Notes under the pieces: model-generated
Database searches by the model: none
What the model saw: the letters and a program-made list of their open reading frames with translations, nothing else
Told to the model about the DNA's origin: nothing
NCBI RefSeq assembly: GCF_054482595.1
Contig: NZ_CM137008.1
Reading direction: 5' to 3' (one strand)
DNA: 64,000 nt
Shown: positions 15,218 to 19,972 of the stretch, one piece after another
How positions within the stretch are numbered: the stretch's first letter is position 1
How the letters are laid out: each line of letters starts with the position of its first letter
Position numbers and translations under genes: made by a program

Positions 15218-16624
15218 ATGTCAAAGCAACAGATTGGCGTCGTCGGTATGGCAGTGATGGGGCGCAACCTTGCGCTCAACATCGAAAGCCGTGGTTATAC
15301 CGTCTCTATTTTCAACCGTTCCCGTGAAAAGACGGAAGAAGTGATTGCCGAAAATCCAGGCAAAAAACTGGTTCCTTACTATACGGTGAAAGAGTTTGTT
15401 GAATCTCTGGAAACGCCTCGTCGCATCCTGTTAATGGTGAAAGCAGGTGCAGGCACGGATGCTGCTATTGATTCCCTCAAGCCATACCTCGATAAAGGTG
15501 ACATCATCATTGATGGTGGTAATACTTTCTTCCAGGACACCATTCGTCGTAACCGTGAACTTTCTGCCGAAGGCTTTAACTTCATTGGTACCGGTGTTTC
15601 CGGTGGTGAAGAAGGCGCGCTGAAAGGGCCTTCCATTATGCCTGGTGGCCAGAAAGAAGCCTATGAACTGGTTGCACCGATCCTCACCAAAATCGCCGCA
15701 GTGGCTGAAGACGGTGAGCCATGCGTTACCTATATTGGTGCCGATGGAGCAGGTCACTATGTGAAGATGGTTCACAACGGTATTGAATACGGCGATATGC
15801 AGCTGATTGCTGAAGCCTATTCTCTGCTTAAAGGTGGCCTGAATCTTTCCAACGAAGAACTGGCGCAGACGTTTACCGAGTGGAATAACGGTGAACTGAG
15901 CAGCTACCTGATCGACATCACCAAAGATATCTTCACCAAAAAAGATGAAGACGGTAACTACCTGGTTGATGTGATTCTGGATGAAGCAGCAAACAAAGGT
16001 ACGGGCAAATGGACCAGCCAGAGTGCGCTGGATCTCGGCGAACCGTTGTCGCTGATTACCGAGTCTGTGTTTGCTCGTTATATCTCTTCTCTGAAAGATC
16101 AGCGTGTTGCCGCATCTAAAGTTCTCTCTGGCCCGCAAGCACAGCCAGCAGGCGACAAGGCTGAGTTCATCGAAAAAGTTCGTCGTGCGCTGTATCTGGG
16201 CAAAATCGTTTCTTACGCCCAGGGCTTCTCTCAGCTGCGTGCTGCGTCTGAAGAGTACAACTGGGATCTGAACTACGGCGAAATCGCGAAGATTTTCCGT
16301 GCTGGTTGCATCATCCGTGCGCAGTTCCTGCAGAAAATCACCGATGCATACGCCGAAAATCCGCAGATCGCTAACCTGCTGCTGGCTCCGTACTTCAAGC
16401 AAATTGCCGATGACTACCAGCAGGCGCTGCGCGATGTCGTCGCTTATGCGGTACAGAACGGTATCCCGGTTCCGACCTTCGCCGCTGCGGTTGCCTATTA
16501 TGACAGCTACCGCGCCGCAGTTCTGCCTGCGAACCTGATCCAGGCACAGCGTGACTATTTCGGTGCGCATACTTATAAGCGCATTGATAAAGAAGGTGTG
16601 TTCCATACCGAATGGTTGGATTAA
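15218..16624 (+). CDS. gnd: 6-phosphogluconate dehydrogenase, decarboxylating
   Basis: 468 aa; NADP-binding N-terminus ([16 protein letters not shown]) and 6PGDH signature region; conserved position downstream of the O-antigen cluster. Confidence 0.95.
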
Positions 16625-16650
16625 TCTGATCTAACCAACAATAAATTTAG

Positions 16651-16679
16651 GCCCGGCGTATATTGCGCCGGGCTTTTTG
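16651..16679 (+). terminator. Rho-independent terminator-like hairpin after gnd (or left-end hairpin of the IS200-like element)
   Basis: ggcccggcg-tatatt-gcgccgggc followed by ttttt. Confidence 0.45.
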
Positions 16680-17390
16680 TGCACAGAAAACCCCCAGCTA
16701 GGCTGGGGGTTCCGGAAAGCTATCAGCTTTGAGCCAGTTATTAAAACCCCTTTTGATTTGTTAAAACACCTTGCGGTCTGGCAACTGCAAGTGTCAAACA
16801 AGAAATCAAAAGGGGGTCCCAATGGGGAACGAAAAGAGCTTAGCGCACACCCGATGGAACTGTAAATATCACATAGTTTTTGCGCCAAAATACTGAAGAC
16901 AAGTGTTCTACAGAGAGAAACGTAGAGCAATAGGCAGTATTTTGAGAAAGCTGTGTGAGTGGAAAAGCGTACGGATTCTTGAAACTGAATGCTGTGCAGA
17001 TCATATCCATATGCTTGTGGAGAGCCCGCCCAAAATGAGCGTATCCGGCTTTATGGGATATCTGAAAGGGAAAAGCAGTCTGATGCTTTACGAGCAGTTT
17101 GATGATTTGAAATTCAAATACAGGAACAGGGAGTTCTGGTGCAGAGGGTACTACGTCGATACGGTGGGTAAGAACACGGCGAAGATACAGGATTACATAA
17201 AGCACCAGCTTGAAGAGGATAAAATGGGAGAGCAGTTATCGATTCCCTATCCGGGCAGCCCGTTTACGGGCCGTAAGTAACGAAGTTGGATGCAAATGTC
17301 AGATCGTGTGCGCCTGTTAGGGCGCGGCTGGTAAGAGAGCCTTATAGGCGCATTTGAAAAACCTCCGGCTATGCCGGAGGATATTTATTT
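16680..17390 (+). mobile_element. IS200-like insertion sequence (IS200/IS605 family), about 710 bp, ends approximate
   Basis: Encodes an IS200-type TnpA; the gnd-ugd spacer is about 958 bp, roughly 710 bp longer than the approximately 250-bp spacer recalled for K-12; hairpins near both ends (aacccccagc-tag-gctgggggtt at about 16689-16711; cctccggc-tat-gccggagg at about 17361-17379). Boundaries uncertain by about 40 bp. Confidence 0.7.
16822..17280 (+). pseudogene. tnpA: IS200 transposase TnpA (HuH Y1 family) with in-frame TGA at codon 25
   Basis: Translation from ATG 16822 gives MGNEKSLAHTRWNCKYHIVFAPKY then TGA (16894-16896), then RQVFYREKRRAIGSILRKLCEW...HIHML... in the same frame to 17280. 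Canonical IS200 TnpA has Arg at this position, consistent with CGA to TGA. Confidence 0.7.
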
Positions 17391-17573
17391 TTGCCAATTA
17401 TCTTATAGACTAAATTTCACTGCTTAATATTAACTTAATAAATATCAGCTATTCTTATAAAGAAAATCTGAATTGTTTTTCGTTGCGTTGACCATCTGAC
17501 AACGTAGCGTTAAAACTTTTAGCTCTTATCAGGATGCTAAAAACATCATGATTCACAGTTAAGTTAATTCTGA

Positions 17574-18749
<1,176 letters not shown>

Positions 18750-18895
18750 CATCCTGTTATCAGGGCGATTTTCGCCCTGATTCTCTTATGTTCCCTTTGT
18801 AATAATTCATTATTTTTATCATTTATCCTATAGCATTCATGGCGATTATCGCTAAACTATGGCGACTTAAAATTATTTCGTCCGTTAGGGTAATG

Positions 18896-19876
18896 ATGAG
18901 AGTAGAAAATAATAATGTTTCTGGGCAAAACCATGACCAGGAACAGATTGATTTGATTGATTTACTGGTGCAGTTGTGGCGTGGCAAGATGACAATTATC
19001 ATCTCTGTCATTGTTGCTATTGCCCTGGCTATTGGGTATTTGGCGGTAGCGAAGGAGAAATGGACGTCAACAGCAATTATCACTCAGCCTGACGTGGGGC
19101 AAATTGCTGGCTATAACAATGCCATGAATGTTATCTATGGTCAGGCTGCACCTAAAGTGCCGGATTTACAGGAGGCGTTAATTGGTCGCTTCAGTTCTGC
19201 CTTCTCTGCATTAGCAGAAACGCTGGATAATCAGAAAGAACCAGAAAAACTTACCATCGAACCTTCTGTAAAGAACCAGCAATTACCATTGACTGTTTCT
19301 TATGTTGGGCAAACTGCAGAGGACGCACAAATGAAATTGGCCCAATACATTCAGCAAGTTGATGATAAAGTAAATCAAGAGCTAGAAAAGGATCTCAAGG
19401 ACAACCTTGCTTTGGGACGGAAAAACTTGCAGGACTCTTTAAGAACTCAGGAAGTGGTTGCGCAGGAGCAGAAAGATCTGCGTATCCGTCAGATTCAGGA
19501 AGCGTTGCAGTATGCGAATCAGGCGCAGGTGACAAAACCGCAGATTCAACAGACTGGCGAAGATATCACACAAGATACGTTGTTCCTTTTGGGGAGCGAA
19601 GCGCTGGAGTCGATGATTAAGCATGAGGCAACTCGTCCGTTGGTGTTTTCGCCAGACTACTATCAGACTCGTCAAAACCTGCTGGATATCGAAAACTTAA
19701 AGGTTGACGATCTTGATATTCATGCTTACCGTTATGTGATGAAACCGACGTTACCTATTCGTCGCGATAGCCCGAAAAAGGCAATTACCTTGATTCTGGC
19801 GGTGCTGCTGGGCGGCATGGTTGGCGCGGGGATTGTGTTGGGGCGTAATGCTCTGCGTAATTACAACTCGAAGTAA
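18896..19876 (+). CDS. wzzB: O-antigen chain-length determinant (polysaccharide co-polymerase)
   Basis: ORF 18839..19876; start reassigned to MRVENNNVSGQNHD (326 aa). Two TM segments flank a coiled-coil periplasmic domain; conserved position between ugd and hisI. Confidence 0.88.
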   Translation: MRVENNNVSGQNHDQEQIDLIDLLVQLWRGKMTIIISVIVAIALAIGYLAVAKEKWTSTAIITQPDVGQIAGYNNAMNVIYGQAAPKVPDLQEALIGRFSSAFSALAETLDNQKEPEKLTIEPSVKNQQLPLTVSYVGQTAEDAQMKLAQYIQQVDDKVNQELEKDLKDNLALGRKNLQDSLRTQEVVAQEQKDLRIRQIQEALQYANQAQVTKPQIQQTGEDITQDTLFLLGSEALESMIKHEATRPLVFSPDYYQTRQNLLDIENLKVDDLDIHAYRYVMKPTLPIRRDSPKKAITLILAVLLGGMVGAGIVLGRNALRNYNSK

Positions 19877-19892
19877 TCTTTTCGGTTTTAAA

Positions 19893-19931
19893 GAAAATGG
19901 GCAGGGTGGTGACACCTTGCCCGTTTTTTTT
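19893..19931. terminator. Bidirectional terminator-like hairpin between wzzB and hisI
   Basis: gggcagggtggtgacaccttgccc followed by gtttttttt on the plus strand; an adjacent 9-bp inverted repeat cggatgcga...tcgcatccg is REP-like. Confidence 0.4.
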
Positions 19932-19972
19932 GCCGGATGCGACGACAATATCGCATCCGCTTACCCCGCAAC

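Follow-up and report, generated by a model that had tools for sequence, protein, structure and literature searches.

A copy of IS200C with an interrupted transposase gene lies at the E. coli O160 O-antigen locus, between gnd (15218-16624) and ugd (17583-18749), in the window, the 64,000-nucleotide stretch of DNA that was analyzed. Judged on its sequence, the element is an ordinary IS200C copy whose transposase gene has been broken by one CGA-to-TGA change. The reading preferred here, given a probability of roughly 93%, is that IS200C inserted 3′ of the gnd terminator hairpin, that a CGA-to-TGA change in the O160 lineage killed tnpA, that the surrounding block was spread by recombination and that the copy is non-autonomous.

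Identity, ends and insertion site of the element

The element is 711 bp long and occupies 16679-17389 on the + strand, starting with GTGCACAG and ending with GATATTTATT. Its ends were set by comparison with ∼16 independent insertion sites and with an empty site; the sequence common to the copies at ∼16 chromosomal sites started with GTGCACAGAAAACC and stopped with GGAGGATATTTATT in every case. The earlier note had placed the element between gnd and ugd, where it was found, and had given its ends as 16680 and 17390, which were within 1 bp of the refined values. The two ends are not complementary when read directly, and terminal inverted repeats are thus absent. Subterminal hairpins were located at both ends instead, both of the terminal hairpins previously claimed being recovered by folding.

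The 711-bp stretch was matched by megablast in 3,098 of 5,426 complete E. coli genomes. Identity to copies named "IS200/IS605-like element IS200C family transposase" in RefSeq was 98.9-99.2%, above the isoform threshold of about 95% nucleotide identity; RefSeq-named copies, on which the assignment is based, showed 6-11 differences in 711 bp. Six differences, one of them at codon 25, were counted in an alignment with an intact copy located between cheW and tar in strain PT62. A single Y1_Tnp frame (tnpA) and no tnpB were found in the 711 bp, a size that fits the IS200-group range of about 700-710 bp. Every defining feature of the IS200 group of the IS200/IS605 family that was tested was present, as were the left-end terminator, the Shine-Dalgarno-sequestering 5′UTR stem and the STnc490/art200 region that characterize IS200 proper (Salmonella/E. 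coli type). The uninterrupted transposase ORF of an autonomous insertion sequence was absent, the frame being broken by TGA at codon 25.

The Rho-independent terminator of gnd (16649-16678, + strand) was the target of the insertion. It consists of a GC-rich hairpin (16649-16675; −21.8 kcal/mol, z −4.4) with a T-run of which the left 5 T (16674-16678) precede the element and the right-hand 3 T (17390-17392, + strand) follow it. Comparison with strains lacking the insertion had been suggested, and the gnd-ugd spacer was found without the IS in 3,548 genomes. In strain XJ34 the empty spacer reads GCGCCGGGC-T8-GCCAATT; in the window the occupied spacer reads GCGCCGGGC-T5, IS200C, T3-GCCAATT. The 8 T of the empty site are therefore divided into 5 T and 3 T, which places the element inside the gnd T-run with no duplicated bases; the earlier note, too, had assumed that no duplication is made. 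Insertion with no target duplication is usual for the IS200/IS605 family. The element would have entered by the single-strand mechanism usual for the family, directly 3′ of the gnd hairpin and T-run.

The same arrangement was seen elsewhere. At all of ∼16 distinct IS200C sites the element was immediately preceded by a GC-rich hairpin and a T-run with TT as its last bases (left junctions L002, L009-L018 and L021-L025), and tnpA was co-oriented with the upstream gene at the 10 retrieved loci and at the gnd and cheW sites. The left junctions of IS200C look like the product of terminator-specific targeting. Terminator-like sequences have previously been reported to be in excess just 5′ of IS200/IS605 elements (bioRxiv 10.1101/2025.07.22.666184). 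Separately, a 391-aa open frame runs antisense within gnd (15431-16606, − strand); it is probably a shadow ORF of a highly expressed, codon-biased gene and not a real gene.

Another 81 complete E. coli genomes were found to have intact IS200C at the identical gnd T-run and in the same orientation. Strain 7/2 (L004, 3701-4411) was the one examined among them, and it has a different, galE-containing O-antigen cluster. The 7/2 copy carries I68/G94 and nt 371G/485A, markers that recur in near-identical copies at five further loci; the O160 copy is of the S68/D94 sublineage. The comparison favours two independent insertions, of the O160 and the 7/2 copies, into one hot spot. Gene conversion between IS copies would give a matching sublineage picture, from either one old insertion or several. 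A broader proposal, in which the gnd T-run is a recurrent hot spot for the two IS200C sublineages (S68/D94 in O160 and I68/G94 of the 7/2 type) and the dead O160 copy is kept as an RNA/terminator module affecting ugd, wzz or other host genes, is considered quite improbable.

The tnpA frame and the stop at codon 25

The tnpA pseudogene (16822-17280, + strand) has 152 codons and corresponds to a Y1 HUH transposase. It starts with ATG at 16822-16824, continues with MGNEKSLAHTRWNCKYHIVFAPKY, is interrupted by TGA at 16894-16896 (codon 25) and then reads RQVFYREKRR... and remains open to TAA at 17278-17280. The H61-I-H63 (HUH) motif and the catalytic Y125 are still in frame 3′ of the stop. Substitution of this tyrosine (Y125F) served as the catalytically dead control in Ellis et al. 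2015 (PMC4513863). A continuous TnpA frame with a single TGA defect, as described in the earlier note, was thus read directly. The 99.2% identity to annotated intact IS200C shows that the frame is not due to chance.

The inactivating lesion on the + strand is a C-to-T change at the first base of codon 25 (IS nt 216, R25 to stop). CGA (Arg) was present at this codon in 14/14 intact copies compared base by base, among them the RefSeq-annotated IS200C with 99.2% identity. Alignment to related elements had been suggested as a check, and the proposed change of an Arg codon from CGA to TGA was borne out by it. Arg25 falls within a YH(I/F)V(F/W).PKYRR segment whose conservation extends to 2ec2 and 2f4f, archaeal homologues of solved structure; 2a6m and 2xm3 are further PDB homologues of the tnpA product.

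The intact homologue matched Pfam Y1_Tnp (PF01797, "Transposase IS200 like") with 130.7 bits (E = 3.8e-38, cut-off 23 bits). The window ORF 3′ of the stop matched with 96.4 bits (E = 1.7e-27, cut-off 23) over profile positions 20-121 only. Together with the nucleotide identity, the Pfam match upholds the assignment to the IS200 family. The residual ORF of 125 aa (16903-17280, + strand) starts at GTG 16903, which is the sole other start in the tnpA frame, lacks Y1_Tnp positions 1-19 and has no upstream Shine-Dalgarno sequence. A truncated product from a downstream GTG, as anticipated earlier, is possible on paper. Reinitiation there is expected to be inefficient, since no Shine-Dalgarno sequence precedes the GTG.

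Translation of tnpA would end after 24 residues. A product of reinitiation at GTG 16903 would lack the conserved YHIVFAPKYRR N-terminal segment, and active transposase would not be expected from it. Of the stop codons in E. coli, UGA is the one most prone to read-through. Trace amounts of full-length TnpA, with Trp at position 25, may thus be made. The element would remain autonomous if the stop were bypassed in function, whether full-length TnpA were produced by read-through or recoding of the UGA, or an active, shortened transposase by a fresh start at GTG 16903. Three features are in keeping with such a bypass: the UGA is followed by A, a relatively weak terminator in E. coli, an in-frame GTG lies 7 nt downstream of the stop, and the HUH motif and Y125 are kept 3′ of it. 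Against this, only 15 of the ∼1,340 genomes carrying a matching IS segment have the TGA, all of them at one locus, and it is therefore no conserved design feature. The GTG is without a Shine-Dalgarno sequence, and the shortened product would lack Pfam positions 1-19, including the conserved YH.V..PKYRR residues. Wild-type IS200 TnpA is already expressed at a very low level (PMC4513863), so a bypass of roughly 1% would be negligible, and read-through would yield only traces of a protein that is very poorly expressed to begin with. An autonomous element by this route is very improbable. Selenocysteine insertion or programmed recoding was rejected in view of the restriction of the TGA to one locus.

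Loss of autonomous transposition is consequently the preferred outcome. The TGA copy was the sole IS200 detected in at least 10 of the 15 carriers, and strain KKo009 has ten copies. The copy would be non-autonomous, and in effect unable to move in genomes without another IS200 as a source of TnpA, as is the case in most carriers. The earlier description of the copy as immobile applies in effect to genomes in which it is the sole IS200; the ends are intact, so "non-autonomous" is the better term, and mobilization of the copy by TnpA in trans would be possible in principle.

Age and spread of the interrupted allele

Among 5,426 complete E. coli genomes, 15 matched a 61-bp query centred on the TGA exactly; the match lay between gnd and ugd in each of them, and the TGA allele was seen at no other locus in the 5,426. 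In these 15 genomes, identity was 99.8-100% over a segment that begins in the 3′ end of gnd, includes the IS and finishes in the 5′ end of ugd. Four of the 15 carriers were inspected (EC71, KKo009, NCTC11023 and CUWW10). Their sources, spread over four countries, were human urine, river water, faeces and wastewater, and all four strains have a cluster with an "O160 family O-antigen polymerase" upstream. Their RefSeq tnpA entries (LJN53_RS08670, L6L68_RS14490, DQM98_RS09425 and ACNHKS_RS13365, respectively) are all annotated 'IS200/IS605 family transposase, pseudo, internal stop'. The elements of NCTC11023 and CUWW10 differ from that of the window by 2 nt and 1 nt, respectively.

Two public assemblies, L019 (1600-2310) and L020 (2858-3568), have CGA at codon 25 of the same gnd-IS-ugd copy; both are short-read or metagenome assemblies and may be chimeric with other IS200 copies. 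The 217-kb contig of L020 also has the upstream Stealth and glycosyltransferase genes of an O160-type cluster; the 2,955-bp contig of L019 is limited to gnd, the IS and the first part of ugd. These alleles give some support to the reading that the TGA arose by an error of sequencing or assembly, the true codon being CGA and the copy intact. That reading is nevertheless extremely improbable. Fifteen independent complete genomes, which differ in laboratory, host and country, have the identical TGA at the same site, a recurrence that excludes sequencing error for practical purposes, and the four inspected carriers were each annotated with the internal stop.

With the TGA taken as genuine, its age was considered from the remaining differences. 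Further amino-acid differences from intact IS200C are A55T, I68S and G94D. Codon 55 (16984-16986, + strand) is ACT (Thr) for GCT (Ala); A55T is present in most TGA-carrying genomes and is polymorphic among them, CUWW10 having GCT. Exact-sequence look-ups found intact 152-aa proteins with S68, with D94, with S68+D94 and with T55+S68+D94, and genes for the intact S68/D94 protein were found at four other loci. Decay of the gene after inactivation was thereby rejected as the source of these three differences, since S68, D94 or both occur in intact proteins. An initial pattern in which all changes were non-synonymous and none synonymous came from a biased comparison set, chosen by identity to one protein. 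Among five same-site alleles the variants at IS nt 216, 224, 242, 302, 306, 614 and 671 form a mosaic, which would be produced either by gene conversion with other IS200 copies or, in the two short-read assemblies, by chimeric assembly.

On these comparisons the copy is a young single-hit pseudogene and not a fossil, the TGA being its only inactivating change and a recent one. The earlier note had called the copy fossilised and immobile: tnpA is dead as proposed, and "fossilised" goes too far as to age in view of the one lesion, the intact cis elements, the sublineage polymorphisms and the apparently intact same-site CGA alleles. Arg codon 25 would have gone from CGA to TGA by a single C-to-T transition in the lineage that carries the O160 O-antigen block.

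As far as about 18.5 kb, the block comprising the O160 cluster, gnd, the IS and ugd was near-identical to its counterpart in five other strains or contigs. A sharp recombination boundary was seen in the 3′ part of ugd and wzzB (∼18500-19950), beyond which wzzB had >100 mismatches per 500 bp against all five. Near-identity of the block beside a diverged wzzB indicates that the O160 cluster-gnd-IS-ugd segment was moved between strain backgrounds by recombination together with the dead allele. Recombination evidently carried the O160 block and the TGA allele in this way, on the strength of the sequence comparison, and the block would have entered several strain backgrounds once the transition had occurred. 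A search of the literature returned no specific report of IS200 at gnd or within the O160 cluster.

Non-coding parts and comparison with known IS200 elements

The left-end hairpin (16689-16711, + strand; −18.7 kcal/mol) is the counterpart of the bidirectional terminator at IS200 nt 12-34 (PMC4513863). Overlapping it, the left end and the tnpA 5′UTR (16689-16812, + strand) matched the Rfam STnc490 model over its full length (144.4 bits, gathering score 56, E = 4.4e-31). A 5′UTR stem (16747-16815, + strand; −38.5 kcal/mol, z −3.9), in which the GGGGG Shine-Dalgarno sequence is buried, matches IS200 nt 69-138 in position (PMC4513863). A putative antisense feature over the tnpA 5′UTR/art200 region was placed at approximately 16741-16830 on the − strand by homology only (PMC4513863, Fig. 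1 legend). The right-end subterminal hairpin (17362-17380, + strand; −15.9 kcal/mol, z −4.3), which is also terminator-like for tnpA, folds far beyond the shuffled controls.

Three further observations were made in this region. The Rfam STnc490 match is on the tnpA-sense strand, whereas STnc490/art200 is described as antisense to the tnpA 5′UTR (PMC4513863); the Rfam model seems to represent the sense-strand left end and 5′UTR. At 16722 (IS nt 44), A replaces T in the loop of a small hairpin, AAAGCT-N-TCAGCTTT, just 3′ of the expected tnpA transcription start, and this A is common to all O160-site alleles, those with CGA included. A sigma-70 promoter scan of 16560-17620 found none. Rfam matches to Ysr202, Leu_leader, isrJ and PsrR1 were below their gathering scores, lay on terminator hairpins and were rejected.

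In Salmonella IS200, the left-end terminator (nt 12-34), the Shine-Dalgarno-sequestering stem (nt 69-138) and Y125 have been described, and the STnc490 region yields 5′tnpA sRNAs with art200 on the opposite strand (PMC4513863). The 5′tnpA sRNAs derive from roughly the first 110 nt of the transcript (PMC5435999), 5′ of the mutation at IS nt 216, which therefore lies outside both 5′tnpA and art200. Folding and model matches show the non-coding parts to be intact throughout: the hairpins at both ends, the terminator at the left end, the stem over the ribosome-binding site and the 5′UTR/STnc490 region. The small RNAs could still be made.

Preservation of the RNA and terminator elements beside a dead ORF would also be expected if the copy had been domesticated, with the left-end terminator, 5′tnpA and art200 serving the host by insulating ugd/wzz from O-antigen operon read-through or by regulation in trans. 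The 5′tnpA RNA regulates more than 70 genes in Salmonella (PMC5435999), and IS200C is kept at exactly the gnd-ugd site in 96 genomes. A pseudogene one substitution away from an intact gene is, however, so young that intact non-coding parts are expected without selection, the 3,548 genomes with an empty site do not need the element there, and the gnd hairpin with 5 T is still upstream. In addition, the invF target belongs to Salmonella SPI-1, which is absent from E. coli. Domestication is accordingly given only a slim chance, and the preferred reading remains that of a recently inactivated, non-autonomous IS200C copy with its cis elements unaltered.

In practical terms the element can serve to trace the lineage of the O160 gnd-IS-ugd block. 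It also provides a clean natural example of IS200C insertion into a terminator T-run with no target duplication, and for annotation it should be described as non-autonomous and not as degraded.

The closest known system is IS200C itself, for example the copy encoding WP_000526135.1, which has the same 711 bp, the same ends, both hairpins and the same 152-codon tnpA frame at 99.2% nucleotide identity. The preference for insertion after a hairpin and T-run is likewise that of IS200C generally. The window copy differs from typical IS200C by the C-to-T change at nt 216 (R25 to stop), A at nt 44, I68S and G94D, with A55T in most carriers; the sublineage markers also occur in intact copies. The four RefSeq pseudogene entries (EC71, KKo009, NCTC11023 and CUWW10) represent the same allele at the same locus with no difference of substance. 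Salmonella IS200 (Lam and Roth; PMC4513863, PMC5435999) has the same left-end terminator, Shine-Dalgarno-sequestering stem, STnc490/art200 region and Y125; it is a different species variant, given as 707 bp in comparison with 711 bp here. The RNA functions (invF/SPI-1) are those shown for Salmonella IS200. Nothing in the window copy departs from known IS200 biology, and the allele is already present in RefSeq as a pseudogene.
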